Position numbers and translations under genes: made by a program. The notes under the pieces were generated by a model. It saw only the letters and a program-made list of their open reading frames with translations. It was not told the DNA's origin and ran no database searches. A stretch of DNA of 64,000 nt from a virus. The stretch covers positions 14,226 to 78,225 of IMG/VR virus record IMGVR_UViG_3300045988_092861, one strand, 5' to 3'. This document shows positions 3,901 to 63,825 of this stretch, piece by piece; the stretch's first letter is position 1, and each line of letters begins with the position of its first letter.

Positions 3901-4635
3901 ATGATTAAACTCTCTCAGATTATCATCCTCAATGTTCCGAAGCGAGAACGTGAGGGTAACTACCTTAAGAAGTTGATAGAGACCAGCACGAAGCCCTATG
4001 GCATTCCTGTCAGTATCTCTATGGACCGAGGTAAGGGTCTTTGGGATAATTATTCCCAAGCGTTGACGCAAGAGGTAGCGGAAGGAACCCATCGTATGAT
4101 TATCCATGATGACATTACCTTCGACCGTAACATTCTTGCCAAGATTTTACATATTCTCTCTTTTGCTCCAGAAAACAACGTTATCAGTTTCTACAATCCA
4201 ACAAATGGTGACTATACTGATTGTTACGCAAAGGGCAAGCACGTTATCTCTACAAAGACAAACTTCTGGCTGCAGGCAAGCGTATATCCAAACGACCTTG
4301 CCAAGGATTTTGTTGAAACATCAAACAAGATGACGGATGATCAGACACGTTATGATGATTCGCGTCTTAAGGCATACCTTCAGGCAAAGGGTATCGACCT
4401 TTACGCCATCGTTCCCGGTCTGGTTCAGCATTTCGGTGCATACAGAAGCACGTTCAACAATCCAGGCGCAGTAGGTGGCATTCCTCGAAACAGCAAGACC
4501 TACGACAACCAGTTTGATGTAGAGTCTGTAGATTGGGAGAGTGAGTTCAAGAATCCTTATTTGGCTAAGTCAAGCAAGGATTGGGTTAAGGAAATAGTAA
4601 ACAAGGAATTTCTCGATGAATACAAAAAACTCTAA
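3901..4635 (+). CDS. Possible GT-A/GT25-like glycosyltransferase (weak)
   Basis: N-terminal IIILNVPKREREGNYLKKL and MIIHDDITFD resemble the GT25 'INL.R..eR' and 'EDD' motifs. This is weak pattern-level evidence only. Confidence 0.3.
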   Translation: MIKLSQIIILNVPKREREGNYLKKLIETSTKPYGIPVSISMDRGKGLWDNYSQALTQEVAEGTHRMIIHDDITFDRNILAKILHILSFAPENNVISFYNPTNGDYTDCYAKGKHVISTKTNFWLQASVYPNDLAKDFVETSNKMTDDQTRYDDSRLKAYLQAKGIDLYAIVPGLVQHFGAYRSTFNNPGAVGGIPRNSKTYDNQFDVESVDWESEFKNPYLAKSSKDWVKEIVNKEFLDEYKKL

Positions 4636-5074
4636 GGAAAATCTAGCCTTGAAATTGGCGAAGGACAATATCGAGGTTGAGCAGGTGAAGCCGCTGCATA
4701 TAGAATACGTTAAGGTTGACGACATTTATCCGAATGACTATAACCCTAATACGCATGATGCAGACAGTTTTGACCTTCTCATCAAATCGTTGCTCTATTT
4801 CGGATTTACTCAGCCTATCGTTGTAAACCGCTCGACGATGCAGATCGTGGACGGAGAGAACAGATACCGTGCCGCCTGCGTCATTGGATATGAGATGGTT
4901 CCTGTATGCTTTGTTGATTTTGACGAAGAGAAGTTGAGATATGCAACAATCATGCACAATGCCGCTCGCGGTCACAACAACAATGAAATGATGGGCAGAC
5001 TTAAGGATTACCTTGACACCCATTTCAGCAATTCCAGCGACAAGGTATTATTAAACAATAGAAATAAGAAATGA
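4616..5074 (+). CDS. ParB/Srx-fold protein, IbrB-like (copy 1)
   Basis: YPNDYNPN...IVDGENRYRA...HNAARGHNNNEMM shares its NYNPN, DG.-R and HN.ARG.H motifs with 6230-6892. Confidence 0.65.
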   Translation: MNTKNSKENLALKLAKDNIEVEQVKPLHIEYVKVDDIYPNDYNPNTHDADSFDLLIKSLLYFGFTQPIVVNRSTMQIVDGENRYRAACVIGYEMVPVCFVDFDEEKLRYATIMHNAARGHNNNEMMGRLKDYLDTHFSNSSDKVLLNNRNKK

Positions 5075-6264
5075 TATTTTACAGTGACAAAAACGTTTAT
5101 GAGGCAGCTCTTGAAAGATTCAGATACATCTTTCGGGAGTTTTATGGTAAGCGTAAGATTGTCGTGACGATGTCGGGAGGAAAGGACTCTACCGTGGTTC
5201 TCAACCTTGCTCACGAGGTTATGAAGGAGATGGGAATTGAAAAGATTCCCGTCCTCTTCCTAGACCAAGAGGCAGAGACTCCAATGACTATCGAGTATAT
5301 ACGATACATCATGCACTTGCCGTGGGTTGAGCCATATTGGATTCAGTCATACTTCCAGGAATGGAATGCCTCAAAGGGAGAATGGTTCAATGTATGGGGG
5401 CCTGGAGAAAAATGGATTCGTGAGAAGGAACCAGATTCTTATGGAGATTTGGAAATCCCTCACAATCAGTATTTCTCCAAGACCCTCGATCAGGTACACA
5501 GAATGCTCTTTGGCAAAGACTACCTAACTTTGGGCGGTGTCCGTATCGAGGAATCGCCGGCACGTTTGTCTGGTCTTACCAGAGGCGAATGTCTTCCTGG
5601 CATAACATGGGGAGGTGGTGGCGGATATTATAAAGACGGCACACCGAGAAGTCTGGTGCTCTACCCTATTTGGGATTGGAAGGTTCATGATGTATGGTAT
5701 TACATCTTTAGCAACAAGCTTCCGTACTGCAAGCTCTATAACTATCAGTTCACGCAGAAGCCACTCAGAGCATGCCGAGTTAGTTCCCTCATCCATGAGC
5801 AGGCTATCCACGACTTAGGTTTCATCAAGGAGGTTGATCCATGGTTCTACGACAAGCTGGTGCGAAGAGTGGCAAACGTCAATACATCTGTACACGTCTT
5901 TAACGAAGTGGCAACATACTGCTACAACTTGCCACCTTATTTCAAGGATTGGGATGAATACGTTGATTATCTCGCAGACAATCTTTGTGAAGACAAGAAG
6001 AATGCGGAGACTATCAAGAAAGGCTACCGTTCCGCCAAGAAGAGAAATGTAGCTAAAGCCGGTCATTGCCAGGAGTGTATTGATTATGTCATACATCAGA
6101 TTGGCTATACAAGTGCCGTCTGCGTCATTGCGGAAGATTTCGGCATGAAGCGCATTCAGAGTGTAGAGCGTTCTTTGCGTCAGTATTTGAGCGACAATTA
6201 TGTTAAAATAGAAAAAGCTAATAAGGAATATGAATCTTCAAGAGAACATCAAGAAGGAGTTTGA
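5071..6264 (+). CDS. PAPS-reductase/PP-loop ATPase family protein, IbrA-like
   Basis: PP-loop VVTMSGGKDSTVV, about 400 aa with a long C-terminal extension. Flanked on both sides by IbrB-like ParB genes. ATGA-type overlap with the upstream gene. Confidence 0.8.
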   Translation: MIFYSDKNVYEAALERFRYIFREFYGKRKIVVTMSGGKDSTVVLNLAHEVMKEMGIEKIPVLFLDQEAETPMTIEYIRYIMHLPWVEPYWIQSYFQEWNASKGEWFNVWGPGEKWIREKEPDSYGDLEIPHNQYFSKTLDQVHRMLFGKDYLTLGGVRIEESPARLSGLTRGECLPGITWGGGGGYYKDGTPRSLVLYPIWDWKVHDVWYYIFSNKLPYCKLYNYQFTQKPLRACRVSSLIHEQAIHDLGFIKEVDPWFYDKLVRRVANVNTSVHVFNEVATYCYNLPPYFKDWDEYVDYLADNLCEDKKNAETIKKGYRSAKKRNVAKAGHCQECIDYVIHQIGYTSAVCVIAEDFGMKRIQSVERSLRQYLSDNYVKIEKANKEYESSREHQEGV

Positions 6265-6892
6265 TGCTGCCAAGGATAAGGTGCAGTTTTTGAACGACCT
6301 CAGAAAGTATATCAGTTCCTTATCTCCGGAGAAAGTCAACCCAGTAGATTGCGTGCTTTGGGTTGACAAGGATATGGTTGTAGCCAACAACTACAACCCT
6401 AACCACGTAGCAGATAAGGAAATGCGTCTTCTCTATACATCCGTGAGGGAAGACGGTTACACAATGCCTATCGTTACCATTTGGGACGAGAAGCTGCAGA
6501 AGTATGTAATCATCGACGGTTTCCACAGAAACCTCGTTATTCGCAAGTTTGCGGACATCAATGAGCGATGTGGCGGAAAGCTGCCGATTGTAGTCCTAGA
6601 CAAGGACATTGACCAGCGTATGGCATCAACCGTAAGACACAATCGTGCCCGTGGAAGTCACTCTGTCGATGGAATGGTAAACATCGTTTTCAATATGCTC
6701 AGAGATGGTGTGTCTGAGCGTGAGATTTGCGAAAAGGTAGGTCTGGAGCAGAAAGAGCTTGTAAAGCTTAAGTTTGTTACCGGTTTCGCCAAGATTTTCA
6801 AGAACTATAAGTACAATGCGGCTATCGAAAAGGTTGTCGACGAGAGACGCGTAGCAAGAGAGACAGCCAAGAAGAAGGAGGATAAGAAATGA
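6230..6892 (+). CDS. ParB/Srx-fold protein, IbrB-like (copy 2)
   Basis: ANNYNPNHV...IIDGFHRNLV...VRHNRARGSHSVDGM. Overlaps the IbrA-like stop by 35 nt. Confidence 0.7.
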   Translation: MNLQENIKKEFDAAKDKVQFLNDLRKYISSLSPEKVNPVDCVLWVDKDMVVANNYNPNHVADKEMRLLYTSVREDGYTMPIVTIWDEKLQKYVIIDGFHRNLVIRKFADINERCGGKLPIVVLDKDIDQRMASTVRHNRARGSHSVDGMVNIVFNMLRDGVSEREICEKVGLEQKELVKLKFVTGFAKIFKNYKYNAAIEKVVDERRVARETAKKKEDKK

Positions 6893-7521
6893 AAGTAAAG
6901 GTAGTTAAACTCAGTGAAATCTTTCCTTACTATGACAACCCTCGTGACAATACGAATGCGGTTGAGCCTACGAAGGAGAGTATCAAGCGTTTTGGATACG
7001 TTAAGCCTATCCTCGTTGATAAGGCAGGTGTAATCATTGCCGGTCACACAAGATATGTGGCTGCTTACCAGTTGGGAATGGAGTTCGTTCCTGTCGTTTA
7101 CTCGGATATGGACGACGAAATGGCAAAGAAGTACCGCATCCTCGATAACAAGCTGGCAGAGAAATCTTCCTTTGATGAAGACCAGCTTTTGGAGGAATTG
7201 CGCAACATGGAGGTTCCTACAGATATGCAGGCATTCTTCTTTGAGGACATCAATCAGATGCTCAACTTCTCTCTCGACAGCATCAACCAGCAGGCAGAAG
7301 AGTATGGTGGCTTCCAGAATGACTATTCTCAGGTTGATGATGAGAACTTCGAGACTCCATCAAATGAAGAGGCTGGCGAAAGCGAGGAAGCTCCTTCGGA
7401 TGAGGAGGAAGACCCTGCCAAGGATTTGTTCGTTCTCAAAGAGCGCGAGGACGGTTCACATTATATGAAGGTCGTTTGCCCATATTGTGGAAATATGGAA
7501 ACAATAGAAATTGAGGATTAA
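6889..7521 (+). CDS. ParB-like nuclease-domain protein with acidic linker and C-terminal CxxC
   Basis: KPILVDKAGVIIAGHTRYVAAYQLGMEFVPVV is typical of the ParB N-terminal domain. It has an E/D-rich linker and ends VVCPYCGNMETIEIED. Confidence 0.7.
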   Translation: MKVKVVKLSEIFPYYDNPRDNTNAVEPTKESIKRFGYVKPILVDKAGVIIAGHTRYVAAYQLGMEFVPVVYSDMDDEMAKKYRILDNKLAEKSSFDEDQLLEELRNMEVPTDMQAFFFEDINQMLNFSLDSINQQAEEYGGFQNDYSQVDDENFETPSNEEAGESEEAPSDEEEDPAKDLFVLKEREDGSHYMKVVCPYCGNMETIEIED

Positions 7522-7526
7522 CAGGT

Positions 7527-8144
7527 ATGGAAGAGATTAAGATTAATGACAAGGTAATTGAGTTACCTATTGACAGTATCGTGCCTCATGACGGTTCGCA
7601 CAAGACCGACGAGACGGCAGTACAGGCAATCATGCAGTCCATCAAGGATTTCGGCATCACTCAGCCTATTTCCGTTGACAAGAACAACGTAATTGTAACA
7701 GGTAACGGTGTGTATAAGGCAGCTAAGGCATTGGGAATGGATAAGGTTCCCTGCATTCGTCTTGACTATCTGACTGATGAGCAGATTAAGCAGTATAGAA
7801 TCGCTGATGACAAGACGTCCGAGTTCGCCACTTGGAACGAGAAGAAGCTTCGCAAGGAGCTCTCCTATCTCGGTGATCCTAACAGCATTCAGTTTGCTTT
7901 CGATGAGAGCATTGCCGGTATGCTTGGACTCAATGCTAAGCCAAAGGAACAGAAACCTGCGGCCGCACCTTCCAAGGCTGAGACTAACCATACGGCTAAG
8001 AAGGTCGTAACCGAAGCCCAGAAGGACCAGAAGTTCAAGGAGGAAATGAAGGGCGTTGAGGAGAATATCCAGGTCAAGCCTTCAGAGTATTATGAGTATA
8101 ATTGTTCCGCTTGCGGTAAACTGGTAAAAGTTAAGAAGCCATGA
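7527..8144 (+). CDS. ParB-like domain protein (degenerate catalytic motif) with C-terminal CxxC
   Basis: QPISVDKNNVIVTGNGVYKAAKALGMDKVPCI has GNGVY in place of GHTR. It ends YEYNCSACGKLVKVKKP. Confidence 0.6.
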   Translation: MEEIKINDKVIELPIDSIVPHDGSHKTDETAVQAIMQSIKDFGITQPISVDKNNVIVTGNGVYKAAKALGMDKVPCIRLDYLTDEQIKQYRIADDKTSEFATWNEKKLRKELSYLGDPNSIQFAFDESIAGMLGLNAKPKEQKPAAAPSKAETNHTAKKVVTEAQKDQKFKEEMKGVEENIQVKPSEYYEYNCSACGKLVKVKKP

Positions 8145-10229: not shown

Positions 10230-10369
10230 TAGTATTTTTAACTAAAATAATTATTAGTATATTTGCATATATCAAATAATTTTCGTATCTTTGCATATAG
10301 ATAAAAGGTAGTACTTTTGACTATTCAGAGCCTACCTTACAAGTTGAACCAATTAAAATTATAAAGATT
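10230..10369 (+). promoter_or_regulatory. Family-1 promoter cassette, copy 2
   Basis: -33 TTTG 10262-10265, a 20-nt spacer, then -7 TATCTTTG 10286-10293. Leader hairpin AAGGTAG/CTACCTT at 10305-10338, then GAACCAATTAAAATT at 10346-10360. Differs from 18513-18652 at about 3 positions over about 143 nt. Confidence 0.65.
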
Positions 10370-11776: not shown

Positions 11777-12571
11777 ATGAAACCAATGTTAGCAACAAGA
11801 TATTATCCGTCACAGACGAAGTTTCCTTGCTTCGTTCAGCCTAAATACGACGGAGTTAGATGCGTCCTTCATGAAGGAGAAGGTGGTGAGGTTCATCTCA
11901 CATCGAGAGGTGGCAAGGAATATGATGTTCCTCAGATTAAGGCGTGGGGAGAGAAGCACCGCGGTATGCTTCCTTTGGATGGTGAGATATACAACCACCA
12001 GGAATTGACCTTTCAACAGATATGTTCTGCTGTAAAGTGCCGCTCTACCATGACCGACAAGCTACGTATGGTTATCTACGATGCACAGATTCCAGGAAGC
12101 TTTGCTACCAGATGGAAAGCTCTGCAGGAGGAATTTGCTCCCATTGATCCAAACGGACCTGTGTACCTTACGCAGACTTTCGTTGCCCATTCAGAGAAGG
12201 ACATCAAGCGATGGCACAAGATATTCGTTTCCACCGGTTACGAGGGTGCCATTATCAGAAATGCAGATGGAATCTATACCGAGGGCAGAAGCAATGACCT
12301 TATGAAGCTGAAATCGTTCGATACGACGGAGTTCAAGGTGGTAGATGTTTTGGAAGCGGAGGGCAATGATGCGGGTACCGCTATATTCAAACTGAAGTGT
12401 GGAGAGCATGAGTTCTGCGCCCGCCCAGTAGGTCCAAGGTCACTCAGAGCCCAATACTTAGCCGACAAGTACGAGTTGATAGGTATGGCGGCGACTGTTC
12501 AGCACCAGGGTTATTCTGATGCTGGAGTGCCGAGATTTCCTGTATTGTTGAACATTAGGGATTACGAGTAA
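11777..12571 (+). CDS. ATP-dependent DNA ligase (minimal, about 264 aa)
   Basis: Nucleotidyltransferase motif I QPKYDGVRC (KxDG), motif IV GYEGAIIRN and motif V DLMKLK. Confidence 0.9.
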   Translation: MKPMLATRYYPSQTKFPCFVQPKYDGVRCVLHEGEGGEVHLTSRGGKEYDVPQIKAWGEKHRGMLPLDGEIYNHQELTFQQICSAVKCRSTMTDKLRMVIYDAQIPGSFATRWKALQEEFAPIDPNGPVYLTQTFVAHSEKDIKRWHKIFVSTGYEGAIIRNADGIYTEGRSNDLMKLKSFDTTEFKVVDVLEAEGNDAGTAIFKLKCGEHEFCARPVGPRSLRAQYLADKYELIGMAATVQHQGYSDAGVPRFPVLLNIRDYE

Positions 12572-14200: not shown

Positions 14201-14275
14201 AAGATTTGGCAAATTGGCAAAATTTTCGTACCTTTGCATATAGAAAAAGGGTAGTAATTTTGTCTAAGAGCCTAC
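14201..14275 (+). promoter_or_regulatory. Family-1-type promoter, copy 4 (partial cassette)
   Basis: -33 TTTG 14205-14208, a 20-nt spacer, then -7 TACCTTTG 14229-14236. The ATTTTCGTACCTTTGCATATAG core is identical to the other copies. A short GTAG/CTAC hairpin follows. Confidence 0.55.
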
Positions 14276-18512: not shown

Positions 18513-18652
18513 TAGTATTTTTAACTAAAATATCTATTAGTATATTTGCATATATCAAATAATTTTCGTACCTTTGCATATAGATAAAAGGTAGTACTTT
18601 TGACTATTCAGAGCCTACCTTACAAGTTGAACCAATTAAAATTATAAAGATT
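18513..18652 (+). promoter_or_regulatory. Family-1 promoter cassette, copy 3
   Basis: -33 TTTG 18545-18548 and -7 TACCTTTG 18569-18576. Hairpin at 18588-18621. GAACCAATTAAAATT at 18629-18643. Near-identical to copy 2. Confidence 0.65.
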
Positions 18653-31852: not shown

Positions 31853-33160
31853 ATGCAACAGAGTTCTTTATTTCTTAAGTATATCATGAGTTTCTTCCCA
31901 ATCTTGAAGACTTTGATTGAGAAGATTAACGGTAAGCGCAAGAACGAGATGACGTATCTCCATAAGGATACATCCATTCTCCGCCGCGTTTATTCTACCG
32001 ACAACAAATGGGAAGCCGACACGGTCGACACCTCTTACGTAGCAGCTGACTACGTAGCTGTTGATTCACCTGTTCCTTTGAAGTCTCGTGACAAGATTTC
32101 TACCGCAAACGGCAAATTGCCAAAGGTCGGTATGAAGAAATTCTTGAAGGAGTCAGATATCCTCGCTCTCAGACTCATGGAAGCACAGGGCGGTCAGACA
32201 GCAGAGATTCGTCGTAAGTTGGCTCAGGACCCGGTAGCTTGTAATGTCGGTGTTGATGAGCGTAATGAGTACGCCCTTCTGTATGGTCTTTCTAACGGCT
32301 ACGTAGCTGTTCGTGACGACGATAATCCAAAGGAGTTGCTCCGTATCAAGTATCGGTACTTGCCAGAAAATCAGCTCGGCATCAACAATGTTGATACTGG
32401 TGTTACAGTTGCAGACTTGAAGGAATGTATCGAGCAAGCATCGAATGATGGCAACACCATCTTGATCTTCTGGATTGGAAAGGCTAAGTTTGACGAATTG
32501 AAGAAGGCACAGGACGCTCGCGAGCTTGTTGCCAACTACAAGGGTCAGACTTATGACTCCAACACAAAGCTGCCGGTTCCTACTGCCAGCGTATTCCAGG
32601 AGGCATTCTTGGACGAGACCGGTGTATCATTCCGCATCATCAACCGTACTGTCCGCTTGGAGCATGATGGCGTGAAGAAGAGTGTTAAGCCTTGGAACAA
32701 CGATATGATTATCGGTGTCTGCTCACAGATGATTGGTGCCCTCGTTTACGGTCAGGTAGCAGAGGCAACCAACAGAGTGGCAGGTGTAACCTATCAGCAG
32801 ATTGATTACAAGCTTATTTCTCAGTATTCAACAACTGATCCATTGCGTGAGACTACTGCGGTGCAGGCATACTGCTTGCCTGTCATCGAGGACGTTGACA
32901 CAATCTATCAGATTGATACTAAGCTGGCAGACCCAGACGTTTCTGTTGATACCGAAAAGGAGAAAGCAGATACAGAGGACGCTAAGGTAACAATCTCTGA
33001 TGTGACCTACAAGAAGCCGGAGGCTATCACAACTCTCAACGCTCTTGGTGCTACACTTCCTAGTAACGCCAGCGACAAGGAGGTTATTGATGCCTACAAT
33101 GAGCTGCCTCCTACAAAGAAGAAGGAGTTCAAGGATAACGCAGCTAAAGCTGAGGAGTAA
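31853..33160 (+). CDS. Major capsid protein
   Basis: 435 aa with a strong SD (AAGGAGG 31840-31846). Its position after the scaffold and decoration genes supports the call. No motif-level proof. Confidence 0.65.
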   Translation: MQQSSLFLKYIMSFFPILKTLIEKINGKRKNEMTYLHKDTSILRRVYSTDNKWEADTVDTSYVAADYVAVDSPVPLKSRDKISTANGKLPKVGMKKFLKESDILALRLMEAQGGQTAEIRRKLAQDPVACNVGVDERNEYALLYGLSNGYVAVRDDDNPKELLRIKYRYLPENQLGINNVDTGVTVADLKECIEQASNDGNTILIFWIGKAKFDELKKAQDARELVANYKGQTYDSNTKLPVPTASVFQEAFLDETGVSFRIINRTVRLEHDGVKKSVKPWNNDMIIGVCSQMIGALVYGQVAEATNRVAGVTYQQIDYKLISQYSTTDPLRETTAVQAYCLPVIEDVDTIYQIDTKLADPDVSVDTEKEKADTEDAKVTISDVTYKKPEAITTLNALGATLPSNASDKEVIDAYNELPPTKKKEFKDNAAKAEE

Positions 33161-35268: not shown

Positions 35269-35318
35269 GCATATTCTAATATCCCTTCGGCCGACTGAGG
35301 GTTATCAGCCGGCAACCT

Positions 35319-35427
35319 ACCCAAGTAGCTCAGGGGAAGAGCGAGACCAAATAGTCCGTCGCATAAAAATCCAGGGTCTTCAAAAGCTGGTTGAAAGTCG
35401 CAGGTTCGAGTCCTGCCTTGGGTGCCA
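35319..35427 (+). tRNA. Atypical 109-nt tRNA-like gene with encoded CCA
   Basis: Acceptor ACCCAAG/CTTGGGT. U8-A9. D arm GCTC-AGGGGAA-GAGC. T arm GCAGG-TTCGAGT-CCTGC. Discriminator G plus CCA. The middle 57 nt do not form a canonical anticodon arm (AGACC/GGTCT stem with a 26-nt loop, then TTCAA-AAGCTGG-TTGAA). Confidence 0.5.
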
Positions 35428-36267: not shown

Positions 36268-39200
36268 ATGCCAAGCATAAAATTCGATACAATAGTCGAG
36301 ACCTCTAAGGTAGTTTCTGGTTTTCGAGACATTCAGAACGCAGTTCATCAGACTGCCGAGAGGGTTGAGAAGGACGGAAAGTCCATTGACGACATAATCT
36401 CGAAAATACAAAACAGCATGAACATTGCCATTGGCGGTTGGAGCATTGGCAAGTTCGTCAATCAGATGATGCAGGTCCGCGGTCAGTTCCAGCAGACAGA
36501 AATGGCTTTCAAGACAATGTTGCAGTCTGAGGAGAAAGCTGATGCGCTTATGAAGCAGTTGATCCGCACGGCAGCCGTCACACCTTTCGGGATTGAAGAC
36601 GTTACAGAGGGAGCCAAGCAGCTCCTTGCGTTTAACGTAGCAGCCGAGGATGTCAACAAGACGCTTATCGGATTGGGAGACGTTGCTGCAGGTATGGGCC
36701 TGAACCTTAAAGACCTCGTGATGCTTTATGGCACCACCATCGCCAAGGGCAAGATGGACACGATGGACTTGTATCAGTTCCTCAACCGAGGTATTCCTAT
36801 CGCAGACGAGATTGCAAAGGTTATGGGCCTTGACGTTACCAATGCTATCAAGGAGGTCCAGAAGCAAATCAAGGCTGGCAAGGTAACCAGCGACGTTTTC
36901 ATCCAGGCAATGCAGAATATGTCTGCAGAGGGTAGTAAGTTCGGTGGATTGATGGAAGCTCAGTCTAAGACCATTACCGGCCAGATAAGCAACATCAAGG
37001 ACGCTATCGAGCAGATGTTCAACGAACTTGGTAAGTCTCAGGAGGGTGTCATCAATACCGGATTGGGAGTTGTTTCTACCCTCGTAGAGAACTGGAAGAC
37101 TGTAGGAAAAGTTCTTATGACCGTTGTCGCTGCCTATGGAGCATACAAAGCTGCTGTTTTGGCAATGATTGCAATATCAAAGGCTCAAATAGCTTGGGAA
37201 AGTGCTAAAGCATTTATTTCTTTGGCACGTTCTATAACTTCCGCAAAGGATGCGATGGCGCTGTTCAACCTTGTTGCGTCATCTAATCCTTTGGGTCTTG
37301 TCTTGGGTGTAATTGCTGCTGGTGTTACCCTATTCGGATTATTCGGCGATAGTGCTGAAGATGCAGCAACCAAGACCTCCAAGTTTACCGAGAGTGCAAA
37401 TGAAGCATCAAGTAAGGTCGAGTCGTTAGTCTCCATTCTGAAGACTGCAAAGGAAGGCTCCAAGGTTTATAAGGACACCATCAAGGAGCTGTCAAGCATA
37501 TATAGCAACTATGGTATTACCATTGACAGGATCAAAGAAGATGAGAGTAATCTCGTTAGTGTTAAGCAGCAGGAGATTGATAAGTCTAACGAGCTTATCG
37601 AGCAAATCAAGCTGGAGGCTACAGAGCGCAACAGAGCCAATGCAATCTCTAAGGCCAACGAAGAATACAACAACCGTGTTGATAGTGCTCAGCAAGCCCT
37701 TTTGGATAAGTTGAAGGATTATGGAACCTCCAGTAGTGGTATTGCGGTAGGCATACAGAACATCGTATCTGATTCGGTTATCAAGCAGTTTGATGAGTTG
37801 ACACAGAAGATGTCTGGCTTGAATGAGCACTCCAAGGAGTATCAGACATATCTGAAACAATACAATCAGCTGGAAGCTTCTTTGATTTCAGAATCAGAAA
37901 ATCTTGCTAATGCTTTTGGGTTTACAGGAGACAAGACAAGCGATGCCAGGAAGGCTTTGATAGGCTATCTCTATGAACTTCGAGCTGCAAAGAAGCTGCA
38001 TACCGAGGAGGCTGATAATATCAACAAAGCTGCAGATGCTACTGAAGATTTCGGTAATAAGGCTACCTCAACCAAGAACAGGATAAACGCTTTGCAGAAG
38101 CAGCTCCAGGGTGCCGGTGAGGATGTACACGTTCTCTACAACCGTGTCAAGGAGTTCATGCAGAACTATTCCGAGAACAACATCAACTTCCACGTCAACT
38201 TCGATGCCAAGATACCATCGTGGATGCAGAATATGAATATTCCGGAACTGGGACGTTTAGGTAAGTACTTCTCTGCTTTGGCACGTGACCTTGCAAACAA
38301 CAAGAAGTCTGGTGCGCTAGTCAATGGTAAATGGATGTCAACAAATGATATCGCTCAACGAGGATGGGATTATACCAATGCAGCGAACACCAAGCAGACA
38401 AAAGCTGACGAAGAGGAAAAGCAGAAGCGTCGCGAAAAGGAAGAGGCAGAAGCAAACGCAAAGAAGAACGCTGCCAAAGCCAAGAAAGCCGCAGCCGATG
38501 CCAAGAAGCAGGCAGAAGACCGCAAGAAGGCCCAGGAGGAACTTAATGAGGACTTGAAGCAGCTGCAGCAGGAAAACATCGACAATGATATATCTCAGAT
38601 GCAGGAAGGCACGGAAAAGAAGCTTGCTCAAATCAAGAACGACTATGCCAAGCGCAAAGCCGAGATTGATAAGCAAGAAGCAGAGTTCAAGAAGAAAAAC
38701 AAGGAAGCTGGCAAGAAAGTAACCCTTACCTCTGCTCAGTCCAATGCCCTCAATAAGGCCAGAGACCTCGCTACCCAAGAGTATAACAAGAAGCTTGATG
38801 AGGTCAACAGGGAAGCCCTCACCTCTATGCGTGACTACTTGAAGGAGTATGGCTCACTCTATCAGCAGAAGCAAGCCATTGCCGAGGAGTACGAGGAAAA
38901 GATTGCCAAGGCTCAGACGGAAGGCGAGAAGAAGACTCTCCAGCAGGAGAAGAAAAAAGCACTCGCCAACTTCGACTACGAAAGCATCTCTATGGGCATT
39001 GACTGGAAGGGTCTGATGAGTGGTGTAGGTAATATGAGCAAGGAAATGCTCAAACCAATGCTTGAAAAGTTAGATGCCTATACCAACACGGACAAATTTC
39101 AGCAAGCCGATACTCAGACACAACAGAAGGTTGTTGACCTCATGCAGGAGATTCGCACTTACCTCGGGACTGATCAGAATGCAACGTGGCAGAACCTTGC

Positions 39201-41130
39201 TGCATCCATCAGCAGTTTCAATCAGTCTGTTGCTGAGTACCAAAAGGCTGTTGAGGAAGAGAAGAGACAGAGTGAAAACTTCAAGTCCGCAAAGGCTCTC
39301 CATGACAAGGGCAGTATCTCCGACAAGGAACTTCAGCAGGCAAAGAAAGCTACTGATGATGCAAGTCAAGCGGTAGTTGATGCCAAAAACAAAATGAATA
39401 CCTTCGGTATCAAGCTCAACTCAGCTACGGAAGCCGTTACGAACTATACTTCGGGGCTTACTGCTGCACTCAACAAGCTCGGAACGTGGAAAGGCAACGA
39501 AGGGTTCTCTGAGGTACAATCATCAGTAGGCAACATAGATGCTTTGAAGGGTGTTCTTGATGAATCTCTCTCCACTATGGGCAACGGAGTAGCCAAGACG
39601 ATGGGCGCAACCATATCGAAAGGTTTAGGAAGTGCTCTCGACACTATCGGAGGTGGAATAACCAATATGATGGGTAGTGCTCTCGGCTCAATCGTAGGAG
39701 TGGTGGCACAGATACCGAAACTCATCCTCAATCTCGCAAGTTCCATAAAGAGCTTCGTGACCGGTATTCTTGATTCGTTTACTCAGCTACTTCAATTCGA
39801 ATGGCTATCAGATTTGGTTAACAGCATTCTTGCTTCCGTGGGAAATCTCATTGATGCCATCTTCGACCTTCCAGAAAACCTATTCAAGGCTCTTGAAAGC
39901 ATTGTTGTTAATGGTGTTGGCGGTCTCTTAGATAACGTGTTAGGTCGTGTAGGTAACGTTCTCTCTCTCGGTGCACTTTCTTCGAAAGGTCCATCTGATT
40001 GGTTCACCAACTCGAATGCAGCGAAGGTAAATCAACGCATATCGGAGTTAACGGATAGTAATGCGCGGTTGGATGATTCCATCAATAGGCTGAGGAACAC
40101 CATGGATAAGTCCTATGGTCAACAAACCAAGAAAGCCTATGAGGAAGCCAAAAGACAGCAACAGCAGAAGAATGACAACCTTAAAGAGATTGCCAAGCAG
40201 AAAGCAAGCTATCATAGCTCCCATAAATCTTGGAATCACTATTGGAGTGGGTTCAGTAGTGATGAGATAAAGAAAATCCAAGAAGCTATTGGCAAGGACT
40301 TCAATGGTGACATCTGGAGTTTGGATGAGAACGACATAAACACCATGTTAGGCTATGAGTGGTTCACTACTAAGATACGCAGAACAGGTAAGATATACAA
40401 GGGGCGTTCCGCTTATGGAGAGGCAGTTCTTAAAGCCATGCAGGACTGGGGAGACTCAGCAGGCACGATGGATGAAATTACTGACGAGTTCAAGGAAGCC
40501 CTCACTCAGATTTCCTTTGACAGCATGAGAGATAGTTTTATCAGCAACCTCATGGACATGACCAAGAGTGCACAGGATTTCTCTGATGATTTCGCAGAAA
40601 TGATGCAGAAAGCCCTCCTCTCCTACTCCATGGACGACCTCATTGAAGGCGACTTGAAGAAGCTTTATGATGATTGGGCAAAGGCAATCGATGATAAAGA
40701 AGGAAAGCTCACAGAAGCAGACATAGACGCATTCAACAAGCGTTACGATGATATAGTCCAGGAAGGCTTGAAGAGACGTGACGAGTGGGCAAAAGTGACA
40801 GGCTACACTGGTTCTTCATCCTCATCACAGACCGCAACAAGCGGAGGATGGGCATCTATGGGGCAAGATACCGCCGATGAGCTGAATGGTCGCTTCACCG
40901 CCCTGCAGATTGCAGGAGAGTCTATCGCTCAGAACATGACTACCACCATATCACAGATGGAGAGCATCGTTACACTCGGAATCTCAACCAATGGCGCAGT
41001 ATTAGAGATTAGAAACATGATGATCATGACAAACAGCTACCTCGAAGACATCGTGAAGTATTCAAAGCTCACCTATAATGACTTCGGAACAAAGCTGGAT
41101 GACATGATCAGAAGATTAAAGGATATTTGA
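36268..41130 (+). CDS. Tail tape measure protein
   Basis: 1620 aa. TP901-type core (AAVTPFGIEDVTEGAKQLLAFNV...LIGLGDVAAGMG), TM-like segments and long K/E/A coiled coils. Confidence 0.9.
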   Translation: MPSIKFDTIVETSKVVSGFRDIQNAVHQTAERVEKDGKSIDDIISKIQNSMNIAIGGWSIGKFVNQMMQVRGQFQQTEMAFKTMLQSEEKADALMKQLIRTAAVTPFGIEDVTEGAKQLLAFNVAAEDVNKTLIGLGDVAAGMGLNLKDLVMLYGTTIAKGKMDTMDLYQFLNRGIPIADEIAKVMGLDVTNAIKEVQKQIKAGKVTSDVFIQAMQNMSAEGSKFGGLMEAQSKTITGQISNIKDAIEQMFNELGKSQEGVINTGLGVVSTLVENWKTVGKVLMTVVAAYGAYKAAVLAMIAISKAQIAWESAKAFISLARSITSAKDAMALFNLVASSNPLGLVLGVIAAGVTLFGLFGDSAEDAATKTSKFTESANEASSKVESLVSILKTAKEGSKVYKDTIKELSSIYSNYGITIDRIKEDESNLVSVKQQEIDKSNELIEQIKLEATERNRANAISKANEEYNNRVDSAQQALLDKLKDYGTSSSGIAVGIQNIVSDSVIKQFDELTQKMSGLNEHSKEYQTYLKQYNQLEASLISESENLANAFGFTGDKTSDARKALIGYLYELRAAKKLHTEEADNINKAADATEDFGNKATSTKNRINALQKQLQGAGEDVHVLYNRVKEFMQNYSENNINFHVNFDAKIPSWMQNMNIPELGRLGKYFSALARDLANNKKSGALVNGKWMSTNDIAQRGWDYTNAANTKQTKADEEEKQKRREKEEAEANAKKNAAKAKKAAADAKKQAEDRKKAQEELNEDLKQLQQENIDNDISQMQEGTEKKLAQIKNDYAKRKAEIDKQEAEFKKKNKEAGKKVTLTSAQSNALNKARDLATQEYNKKLDEVNREALTSMRDYLKEYGSLYQQKQAIAEEYEEKIAKAQTEGEKKTLQQEKKKALANFDYESISMGIDWKGLMSGVGNMSKEMLKPMLEKLDAYTNTDKFQQADTQTQQKVVDLMQEIRTYLGTDQNATWQNLAASISSFNQSVAEYQKAVEEEKRQSENFKSAKALHDKGSISDKELQQAKKATDDASQAVVDAKNKMNTFGIKLNSATEAVTNYTSGLTAALNKLGTWKGNEGFSEVQSSVGNIDALKGVLDESLSTMGNGVAKTMGATISKGLGSALDTIGGGITNMMGSALGSIVGVVAQIPKLILNLASSIKSFVTGILDSFTQLLQFEWLSDLVNSILASVGNLIDAIFDLPENLFKALESIVVNGVGGLLDNVLGRVGNVLSLGALSSKGPSDWFTNSNAAKVNQRISELTDSNARLDDSINRLRNTMDKSYGQQTKKAYEEAKRQQQQKNDNLKEIAKQKASYHSSHKSWNHYWSGFSSDEIKKIQEAIGKDFNGDIWSLDENDINTMLGYEWFTTKIRRTGKIYKGRSAYGEAVLKAMQDWGDSAGTMDEITDEFKEALTQISFDSMRDSFISNLMDMTKSAQDFSDDFAEMMQKALLSYSMDDLIEGDLKKLYDDWAKAIDDKEGKLTEADIDAFNKRYDDIVQEGLKRRDEWAKVTGYTGSSSSSQTATSGGWASMGQDTADELNGRFTALQIAGESIAQNMTTTISQMESIVTLGISTNGAVLEIRNMMIMTNSYLEDIVKYSKLTYNDFGTKLDDMIRRLKDI

Positions 41131-60440: not shown

Positions 60441-60570
60441 TAGTATTTTTAACTAAAATAAAGTGTGGTATATTTGTATATATCACATTTTTTTTGTACT
60501 TTTGCATATAGTAAGAGTGGTTATTTTGATTAACCACAGCTTATGTTGAACCAATTAAAATTTTATAAAG
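60441..60570 (+). promoter_or_regulatory. Family-1 promoter cassette, copy 5 (diverged)
   Basis: TAGTATTTTTAACTAAAAT. -33 TTTG 60473-60476, a 20-nt spacer, then -7 TACTTTTG 60497-60504. Hairpin GTGGTTA/TAACCAC at 60517-60537. GAACCAATTAAAATT at 60548-60562. Confidence 0.6.
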
Positions 60571-61564: not shown

Positions 61565-61592
61565 TTTATAACCAATTAAAATATTAAAGATT

Positions 61593-62551: not shown

Positions 62552-62584
62552 GGAGCTTCCAAGGGTTAGTCCTTTGGTTGCTCC
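62552..62584. terminator. Bidirectional terminator hairpin between convergent genes
   Basis: GGAGCTTCCAAGGG / CCTTTGGTTGCTCC forms 12 pairs, interrupted by a 2-nt mismatch, with a 5-nt loop. It overlaps the integrase stop codon. Confidence 0.6.
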
Positions 62585-63825
62585 TTATATAGAACGTAAT
62601 CCAATACTTTTCTATTTGCAGCGTCTATATTGGCAACACTCTTGTCAATATAGATAGCTGTTGTCCTGTTTCCATGGGAATGTCCCAATGCTTCGGCAAT
62701 GATTTCTTCGGGTATTCCTATGGAGAAGGCTATTGTTGCCCACGTATGTCTAGCCCAATACAGAGAGATATGAGTAAACAAAGGATTATGCTTCGTATGA
62801 TATTCCTTCTGAAAATCGTGAGCTTTCTTTTTCTCGTTCTTTTCTCTAGTGACAGGCCCTATTGCCTTCAGTCCCTTGTTTGCCTTGCACACAAATTGCT
62901 TGTAGTTCCTCATGTTCTCTGAGAAATTGACTAAATTCGTCTTTCCTCTATACCTATTTATTATCTGTACGGCTTCCGGTTCCAGTCTTATACTATACAA
63001 TCTTCCGGTCTTCTTTCGTCTATACAGCAATCTTCCATCTACTACATTCTCATCTGTACAATTAAGAATATCGGCAGGATTTATCCCGATCAAGAAGAAT
63101 GTAAGCTTGAAATAGTCCAAGTACTTCTGCTGCCATGGCTGAACATTATAATTAAATAAGGTGCGTAGTTCATCTACAGAAAGAGAACGTTTTTCTGTCT
63201 GTTCCGGATTTATATCGAATGTTCTCATCGGATAATGGCTGGTTATCTCATTATCGATAGCATCGTTGAAAACAGCACGTATGTTTCTGAAATGTATGTT
63301 CCTTGAGTTCTTCTTTAACCCTTGTCTTACCAACTCGGCATCCAACCTTTTCAGCCAATCCTTTGAAATATCTTCAAAAGCGTAGGTATCTACCTTGCTA
63401 TCGAAATCGCGCATCTTCTTCAAAGTGGTTGCATATATTTCCCTGGTCCTTTGTGCTGAACGACTATTCATATATTCTATATACCTATTTATAAATAAGT
63501 CTTTCTTCTTAATATCAGGGTCTAGATAGGCCACAACCTTATTCTTTATCTGCGTTGAAGTCTGTTTAGTAAGCTCTCCCTTCATCTGCAGTTCCAATAT
63601 GGCATTTTCAATCTCTACCAATTTGTTCTTGACAAATATTTCCAATCTCTGCTTGTTTGGTGCATCAACTATTCTTTGTTTCTTTACATCCCATTGTTCC
63701 TTTTTCAATTTTACACCAAGAGAAATATAAGCTGCCTGTCGCTTCTTTGTGATTGCAACTTTGAGCGGTGCAGGCTCTCCGTCCTTGACCGCTCTTGTAT
63801 CTAAGTATAGTTTCGTTGTTATCAT
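62566..63825 (-). CDS. int: Tyrosine-type site-specific integrase
   Basis: C-terminal ARHTWATIAF...LGHSHGNRTTAIYI (R, H-x-x-R, H and Y catalytic pattern). Bacteroides-type N-terminal arm-binding region MITTKLYLDTR. Start set at ATG 63825; the track's extension is encoded by the tandem repeats. Confidence 0.85.
   Translation of the reverse strand: MITTKLYLDTRAVKDGEPAPLKVAITKKRQAAYISLGVKLKKEQWDVKKQRIVDAPNKQRLEIFVKNKLVEIENAILELQMKGELTKQTSTQIKNKVVAYLDPDIKKKDLFINRYIEYMNSRSAQRTREIYATTLKKMRDFDSKVDTYAFEDISKDWLKRLDAELVRQGLKKNSRNIHFRNIRAVFNDAIDNEITSHYPMRTFDINPEQTEKRSLSVDELRTLFNYNVQPWQQKYLDYFKLTFFLIGINPADILNCTDENVVDGRLLYRRKKTGRLYSIRLEPEAVQIINRYRGKTNLVNFSENMRNYKQFVCKANKGLKAIGPVTREKNEKKKAHDFQKEYHTKHNPLFTHISLYWARHTWATIAFSIGIPEEIIAEALGHSHGNRTTAIYIDKSVANIDAANRKVLDYVLYKEQPKD

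Follow-up and report, generated by a model that had tools for sequence, protein, structure and literature searches.

A conserved tRNA-like RNA with a predicted pseudoknot in place of its anticodon arm at one late-gene junction of Segatella copri prophages

What is an RNA with the two ends of a transfer RNA (tRNA), but with no recognizable anticodon arm, doing between two structural genes of a phage? The question is raised by the IMG/VR record IMGVR_UViG_3300045988_092861, of which we analyzed a window of 64,000 nucleotides (nt), from position 14,226 to position 78,225; feature coordinates given below without a locus handle refer to this window. The element in question occupies positions 35319–35424 and lies between the genes for a putative major tail (tube) protein and a putative tail assembly chaperone. 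According to our analysis, it represents a real, conserved and so far unannotated RNA family present on about 450 human-gut contigs, in which the top half of a tRNA is joined to a bottom half that is predicted to be pseudoknotted. The carriers of this family are prophages of human-gut Segatella (Prevotella) copri.

Structure and conservation of the element

The sequence folds as a cloverleaf with an acceptor stem of 7 base pairs (bp), U8, a D arm of 4 bp with GG in its loop, a T arm and a discriminator G (Table 1). These parts, on which the preliminary description had based its claim of a genuine, atypical tRNA-like element, were confirmed base for base, and the helices are kept in relatives, with covariation. 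In an alignment of 23 sequences, 100% of the cloverleaf cells were paired, against 22–52% in slid controls, and double-sided change was found at four pairs: the acceptor pair 1–72 (A-U, G.U, G-C), the T-stem pair 49–65 (G-C, G.U, A-U) and two pairs of the helix S1 considered below. The folding energy of the element was not significant (z-scores −0.5 to −1.35); the case for a structure beyond chance is therefore made by conservation and covariation, and folding energy forms no part of it. The last bases of the conserved connector 5' of the T arm probably stand in for the variable loop, with C48 opposite G15.

Two helices are found where the anticodon arm would be expected. The first, S1, encloses 26 nt in the window and 18–33 nt in relatives, and its strands occur as AGACC/GGTCT, AGGCC/GGCCT, AGGTC/GACCT and TGGTC/GACCA. 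The second, S2, was seen in four combinations (CCAG/CUGG, CCAC/GUGG, CCAU/AUGG and CCGC/GCGG). The sequences of this type, 69 of them distinct, were parsed with our own script and fixed anchors, not with a standard tool; 98.2% of the S2 cells were paired, in comparison to 7–55% in slid controls, and the observed pairing was matched by none of 2000 shuffles, nor by any of 5000 once the set had been collapsed to 16 combinations. Since S2 directly abuts the 3' strand of S1 and an A-rich linker (L3) is present, S1 and S2 are predicted to form an H-type pseudoknot at the position of the anticodon arm, and L3 would fit as the strand that crosses the minor groove of S1.

A compact clade (L306, L307, L393–L395 and L408) possesses a version of 76 nt, with a plain hairpin instead of the pseudoknot; its anticodon arm consists of a covarying stem of 6–7 bp and an A-rich loop, e.g., AAAAAAA or GAAUAAGAU, without U33. 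In L393–L395 the T loop reads TCCGAAT in place of TTCGAAT, with the loss of U55, which may weaken the elbow.

Other pairings of the central part fared less well. An extra-arm hairpin (TTCAA/TTGAA around AAGCTGG), which belonged to the first of two models in the preliminary description and corresponds to the variable arm drawn by ARAGORN, can form all five pairs in 56 of the 69 sequences. It was rejected: its changes are all of the wobble type, the L392 and L401 clades cannot form it, and there is no room for it to stack alongside S1 and S2. It is perhaps a minor or alternative conformer. The second model, a class-I layout with the loop AAGCUGG, does not hold either: the loop is variable, of 7 or 8 nt (AAAGCUGG, AAUGCUGG, AAGAUGG, AAGGUGG), and its helix is unable to form in two clades. 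The hairpin GCGAGAC...GTC..TCGC of the minimum-energy fold is broken in a second clade (TCAC), and a pairing of the variable loop L1 with the loop of the hairpin upstream of the element (GGGUUAU/AUAGUCC), judged by eye, was limited to the clade of the window; both were rejected.

Relatives were collected by protein-guided scans of IMG/VR and metagenomes and by pattern scans, which gave 451 loci with a homologue of the tail-tube gene. The tRNA-like element was located at the same junction in all 449 loci that were parsed, i.e., in every locus with readable downstream DNA; they come from IMG/VR, metagenomes, a Segatella copri prophage and a metagenome-assembled genome (MAG). Identity falls to about 60% among the tail-tube proteins and to 62–71% in the chaperone DNA, and the body of the RNA remains at 79–90%; L1 has an identity of 55–82% to other clades. 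The acceptor stem, the T arm and the GG of the D loop (the elbow) are the most conserved parts, and the anticodon region varies in form. Within the acceptor stem, CCCAAG is nearly invariant while S1 covaries freely.

The element was missed by the usual searches. ARAGORN with default settings revealed no tRNA in the window or in the whole 78-kb record, and Rfam gave nothing at the gathering score and only chance-level matches at E-values up to 10. The covariance-model check proposed in the preliminary description went against a standard tRNA: the Rfam tRNA model RF00005 scored 13.8 bits over a partial match (35369–35424), below its threshold of 29. Of what this model describes, the 7-bp acceptor stem, U8, the D arm with G18G19 and the T arm with a TTCRA loop are present, but the 5-bp anticodon stem with a 7-nt loop, U33, an anticodon and purine 37 are not. 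As the clades have no anticodon in common and no U33/purine-37 context, the element is not a decoder; it is a non-decoding, tRNA-shaped RNA without a working anticodon loop. The preliminary description had also allowed for a normal tRNA at this site in related phages. No decoding tRNA was seen at the junction in any of the 449 loci, and the only version of 76 nt is the one with the loop AAAAAAA or similar. Its view that a suppressor role is not required is supported. The YrlA/Y RNA-like family (RF02553) was matched with 14.2 bits, the gathering score being 69.

Among host tRNAs, tRNA-Leu(CAG) of Segatella copri N016-9 (L267:1444–1526) has an acceptor stem (GCCCAAG/CTTGGGC), an A73 and a T arm identical to those of some clades of the phage element: the T arm and the acceptor stem match, and in two clades A73 as well. 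The D arm of this tRNA is of class II, unlike that of the element. The likeness may reflect ancestry from a tRNA, mimicry or a second, trans-acting role; a recent capture of a host tRNA was rejected, as the resemblance of host tRNAs, of which tRNA-Leu(CAG) is the closest, does not extend past the T arm and the acceptor stem. Another species of the genus contains a tRNA-like sequence (L488:4120–4242, minus strand; C95:6619–6741) that is unrelated to the element and has good arms of the acceptor, D and T type. There, about 62 nt replace the anticodon arm, and the sequence is flanked by a ResIII/DEAD helicase gene and a gene for a protein of 754 amino acids (aa), with an AAA_21 (AbiEii-like) gene nearby. 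Mimics of tRNA that lack an anticodon may thus be more widespread.

Processing of the late messenger RNA and competing readings

We favor, with moderate confidence, the reading that the element is a tRNA-like processing signal which acts in cis and is cut by RNase P and RNase Z of the host, thereby splitting the late messenger RNA (mRNA). Transcription of the late operon would pass from the tail-tube gene across the hairpin and the tRNA-like RNA into the genes for the chaperone and the tape measure. A cut by host RNase P at nucleotide +1 (35319) would leave a tail-tube mRNA ending in a stable hairpin with a tail of 1–6 nt, which is expected to resist 3' exonucleases and to favor a high output of tube protein. 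In Escherichia coli such a tail is too short for 3' exonucleases to engage, and we infer that the same applies to this host. Host RNase Z would cut at the discriminator or at C74 and release a chaperone/tape-measure mRNA with a short A/U-rich leader; in at least five clades the cut mRNA would begin at the AUG or one base before it, and would be leaderless or nearly so. The pseudoknot, or the plain hairpin that replaces the anticodon arm, would keep the L shape and block decoding.

Several properties of the element speak for this reading. The most conserved parts are those that RNase P and RNase Z read. In addition, the element is present in every relative at one junction and has outlasted the divergence of its flanks. 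No promoter motif (sigma-70-like or TAnnTTTG) was found between the two flanking genes, and both of these genes and the element are on the plus strand. There are also precedents in the t-elements and in the action of RNase P on phage and operon RNAs, which are discussed below.

The 3' end is host-like. Position 74 is C in all 449 loci, and positions 75–76 are free (CA in 224, TA in 145, AT in 48, AA in 19, TT in 7, GA in 4 and CC in 2). The encoded CCA of the preliminary description is indeed present in the window (35425–35427), but it is limited to this clade, and C74 alone is invariant. The same rule was seen in the host tRNA genes that were inspected (L267, L268, L269, L271 and L273): 20 of the 21 have C74 and none has CCA, and we count this agreement in favor of processing. 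The host possesses an RNase Z (307 bits, over the cut-off). As an observation on Segatella copri itself, the occurrence of C74 without CCA in 20 of 21 genes hints at a 3'-processing rule of this host that is apparently undescribed.

Both sides of the element are arranged in a way that fits cleavage. The GC-rich hairpin placed in front of the gene by the preliminary description was confirmed (predicted free energy −12.4 kcal/mol), and a hairpin with a free energy of −6 kcal/mol or lower ends 1–6 nt before nucleotide +1 in 441 of the 449 loci. Its fifth stem pair varies (A.C, A-U, G-C, G.U), and in L276 it carries a terminator-like tail of T6. In L460, L402 and L405 the hairpin loop, TAACC(C), is the reverse complement of the GGGTTA of the window and the stem is kept, which suggests that the palindrome was inverted at the DNA level; with a loop that can be inverted, the stem is what matters. 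Downstream, the AUG of the chaperone gene follows directly after C74 in 48 loci from several clades, whereas elsewhere an A/U-rich spacer of 15–24 nt is present (in the window, the gene starts 23 nt past the discriminator). In these 48 loci, initiation on the uncut transcript would require melting of the acceptor and T helices, because the AUG abuts C74 and thus the GC-rich helix of 7 bp.

Some points weigh against processing as the whole explanation. RNase P and RNase Z need just the acceptor/T minihelix and the elbow; that a stable, covarying replacement of the anticodon arm is kept all the same hints at a further role. The near-invariance of CCCAAG in the acceptor stem suggests sequence-specific recognition, which the processing model does not predict. 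With a hairpin only 1–6 nt upstream, the RNase P protein may find it harder to bind the leader, and a small clade (L415–L417) is without the upstream hairpin. Finally, good translation of leaderless or near-leaderless mRNAs in Bacteroidota is not established.

The first two of these points could be explained by a role in trans, which we regard as possible but doubtful. The RNA would be excised, receive a CCA tail, accumulate late in infection and act as a decoy or inhibitor by binding a host factor that reads the elbow or the acceptor end; candidates are RNase P, EF-Tu, the CCA-adding enzyme and defense toxins whose targets for modification or cleavage are the 3' ends of tRNAs. The full L shape, including the covarying pseudoknot, is retained beyond the needs of processing, the near-invariant acceptor stem matches host tRNA-Leu(CAG) together with the T arm, and a decoy without an anticodon would leave decoding undisturbed. 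However, an RNA acting in trans would have no need of a fixed junction, of a hairpin at its side or of a start codon directly behind it. Anticodon nucleases cannot be its target, as it has no anticodon loop; no defense system was linked to the element, and a search of the phage for a partner gene returned just a generic methyltransferase and a DNA ligase. The decoy may also coexist with the role in cis. A combined scheme, in which the excised mimic is made abundantly from the late operon, punctuates the mRNA and acts in trans as a decoy or inhibitor of a host tRNA-directed defense or quality-control enzyme, seems unlikely to us; if true, it would be a form of RNA-based counter-defense in phages of gut Bacteroidota.

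It is likewise improbable that the element is a structural regulator in cis that is never cleaved. The RNA and the hairpin would then pause or terminate transcription, or block the chaperone start, and so lower the chaperone and tape-measure proteins relative to the tube protein; differential expression at the tube/chaperone junction is expected in siphophages. The start codon abutting the structure in 48 loci would suit such a regulator, as would L276, where the hairpin is followed by T6 and resembles an intrinsic terminator. In nearly all loci, however, the hairpin has no U tract behind it, and scoring gave no terminator-like site. A simple hairpin would suffice for regulation of this kind, and the T loop, the GG of the D loop, U8, the 7-bp acceptor stem and the invariant C74 would be unneeded.

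The two remaining readings are very improbable even taken together. The preliminary description had listed a decayed tRNA, and standard tRNA finders do miss the element; a functionless pseudogene is nevertheless hardly credible for a sequence which is present in 449 of 449 loci, is better conserved than the flanking coding DNA and shows compensatory changes in four helices. Least probable of all is a tRNA that decodes after the removal of a short intron or insert, such as a tRNA-Trp(CCA) or a derivative of tRNA-Leu(CAG): ARAGORN with the intron option does report a tRNA-Trp(cca) in which a 21-nt "intron" precedes U33 and the variable arm is long, and A1-U72 and G73 recall the identity of bacterial tRNA-Trp, but the supposed anticodon is one strand of a covarying helix (CCA within CCAN, which changes together with NUGG, other clades having CCAC, CCAU and CCGC), a C-G pair would close the "spliced" loop, the Rfam score lies below its threshold, and the tRNA-splicing endonuclease PF01974 was not found in phage or host while it was present in four archaeal controls. 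The insert of 14–29 nt is too short for a group I intron and, to our knowledge, cannot be a self-splicing or ribozyme intron of any kind, so that the intron-containing tRNA of the preliminary description does not stand. In the compact clade the same ARAGORN option returned Phe(aaa) or Leu(aag), which makes the Trp call in the window an artifact. Tools run with this option will thus label the element as tRNA-Trp, tRNA-Phe or tRNA-Leu, and annotators should be aware of it.

If the favored reading of processing in cis is true, it would provide a post-transcriptional mechanism for the ratio of tube to chaperone expression. It would also imply that RNase Z generates mRNAs with little or no leader in Bacteroidota, a phylum in which translation initiation is poorly understood.

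Genes, prophage and host

The order of the late genes is major head protein (31853–33160), connector genes, the 193-aa gene, the element, the 236-aa gene and the tape-measure gene (Table 1). The position of the element given in the preliminary description, between tail-tube and chaperone genes, agrees with this order; the two gene names rest on synteny and, for the tail tube, also on a structural model of mediocre quality. The 193-aa protein belongs to PHROG 17745, which has no named function; its AlphaFold model (pLDDT 69) has a fold whose matches are nearly all phage tail-tube proteins, with TM-scores of only 0.3–0.4. We consider both identities well-founded by synteny, although unproven.

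Table 1. Positions of the element, its parts and the neighboring features in the window
Feature	Position	Strand	Remarks
Putative major tail (tube) protein, 193 aa	34687–35268	+	Follows the head-tail connector genes; the tape-measure gene is the second gene downstream
Conserved motif CCCTTC	35283–35288	+	Immediately precedes the hairpin; shared by most clades, unlike the diverging stretch between stop codon and motif
Upstream hairpin, GCCG-A-CTGA / loop GGGTTA / TCAG-C-CGGC	35290–35313	+	Separated by 5 nt from the tRNA-like part
tRNA-like 5' part: acceptor strand, U8 A9, D arm, G26	35319–35343	+	Read from the sequence
Acceptor stem, ACCCAAG × CTTGGGT	35319–35325 × 35417–35423	+	7 bp
D arm, GCTC-AGGGGAA-GAGC	35328–35342	+	Stem invariant; GG always in the D loop
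S1 5' strand, AGACC	35344–35348	+	Anticodon-stem equivalent; pairs with 35375–35379
L1, variable loop	35349–35370	+	22 nt here, 14–29 nt in relatives; A run of varying length
S2 5' strand, CCAG	35371–35374	+	Pairs with 35387–35390; its CCA is the Trp anticodon of ARAGORN -i
S1 3' strand, GGTCT	35375–35379	+	Covaries with 35344–35348
L3, A-rich linker, UCAAAAG	35380–35386	+	A-rich in every clade (UUAAAAG, UAAA, UAAAACA, others)
S2 3' strand, CTGG	35387–35390	+	Always 9 nt 5' of the T stem
Conserved 9-nt connector, UUGAAAGUC	35391–35399	+	Consensus UUGARAGNC across clades
T arm, GCAGG-TTCGAGT-CCTGC (35400–35416), acceptor 3' strand CTTGGGT, discriminator G (35424)	35400–35424	+	
C74, C75 A76	35425–35427	+	C74 invariant; C75 A76 in this clade only
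Putative tail assembly chaperone, 236 aa	35448–36158	+	Directly 5' of the tape-measure gene; PHROG 11996, no named function
Tape-measure gene	36268–41130	+	PF20155, confirmed
Tyrosine integrase, Bacteroidota-type	62566–63825	−	Arm-DNA-bind_5 and Phage_int_SAM_5 domains

The record has a length of 78,225 bp, and the 52-bp "direct terminal repeat" at its ends is the 3' part of a tRNA gene with the T arm GGGGG-TTCGAAT-CCCCC, on the minus strand. This repeat is a duplicated attachment (att) site, and a packaging repeat is ruled out. Owing to the tRNA-derived att repeat and the neighboring tyrosine integrase, the record is regarded as an excised prophage. The element itself was considered as the phage attachment or integration site and rejected, since the end repeat derives from a different tRNA gene and the integrase lies 27 kb away.

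When the 3' half of the element was scanned against species genomes, only two matches were obtained: the same prophage in Segatella copri N016-9, with 92% identity over 7.7 kb, and a divergent copy in a MAG. The G+C content of 41% and the scarcity of Shine-Dalgarno sites are consistent with a Segatella copri host. In a genus-wide scan, the element was present in 1 of 121 genomes of the host genus, namely in the lysogen, and it occurs as a single copy in the genome; model R1 gave 116–118 bits for the element and at most 52 bits for ordinary tRNAs.

Some further features of the phage are worth recording. Four ParB-like genes (4616–5074, 6230–6892, 6889–7521 and 7527–8144) fill the region 4616–8144 just upstream of the terminase genes, with a PAPS-reductase/DUF3440 gene (5071–6264) in their midst; such a multiplication of ParB-like nuclease/partition domains is unusual. 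The early region of this temperate Bacteroidota phage also encodes an ATP-dependent DNA ligase of 264 aa (PF01068, PHROG 114; 11777–12571). In addition, a 20-nt motif, CAATTAAAATTATAAAGATT, stands directly 5' of several start codons (at about 10350–10369, 18633–18652 and 61573–61592), with a near-copy at 60551–60570 and a fourth exact copy outside the window. These genes may have a promoter or an element of the 5' untranslated region in common.

Relation to known systems

Canonical phage tRNAs, including those that evade host defense, keep a 7-nt anticodon loop and decode. They share with the element the coding by a phage, the tRNA body and the host-type processing signals, and the element differs from them in that it cannot decode. 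Transfer-messenger RNA (tmRNA) resembles it in having a tRNA-like top half together with a pseudoknot; the element, in contrast, has a full D arm and about 106 nt, it contains no tag reading frame, and the tmRNA search with ARAGORN (option -m) was negative.

In mitochondria, the mRNA that lies behind an excised tRNA begins at its AUG or next to it. The leaderless start predicted for 48 loci is similar, although the mitochondrial punctuation marks are real decoding tRNAs. Another parallel is offered by the transcripts MALAT1 and MEN-beta. In MALAT1, the tRNA-like mascRNA lies directly 3' of a stabilizing structure, and the cut by RNase P leaves the upstream 3' end protected; mascRNA is a small, non-decoding RNA that is released through RNase Z and receives CCA. 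The arrangement of a non-decoding tRNA-like RNA directly behind a stabilizing structure is the same as in the phage, but MALAT1 and MEN-beta are eukaryotic nuclear long non-coding RNAs with a triple helix as the protector, and no downstream coding region is freed.

Bacterial RNase P has non-tRNA substrates among phage RNAs and the intergenic regions of operons, as would be the case here: the C4 RNA precursor of P1 and P7, the M3 RNA of phi80 and the his, tna and rbs operon mRNAs (PMC11143913). These substrates are not full cloverleaves and do not form a conserved family at a junction of structural genes. The t-elements of plant mitochondria are non-canonical cloverleaves with the T arm GGTTCRANYCC, whose ends coincide with mRNA ends, these being attributed to cuts by RNase P at the 5' and RNase Z at the 3' end (Forner et al., 2007, PMC1920247). 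Once excised, such an RNA is possibly stable and can perhaps gain C or CA (PMC1920247). The phage element differs in being bacterial and not organellar, in its covarying, predicted pseudoknot as the anticodon arm and in its upstream hairpin, and its cleavage is so far a proposal. It shares with the t-elements a non-canonical cloverleaf with a conserved T arm, placed between protein-coding genes on the coding strand of the operon and hence, as we propose, within a longer transcript. Overall, if processing in cis takes place as suggested, the element would apparently be the first conserved tRNA-like punctuation mark in a structural operon of a bacteriophage.

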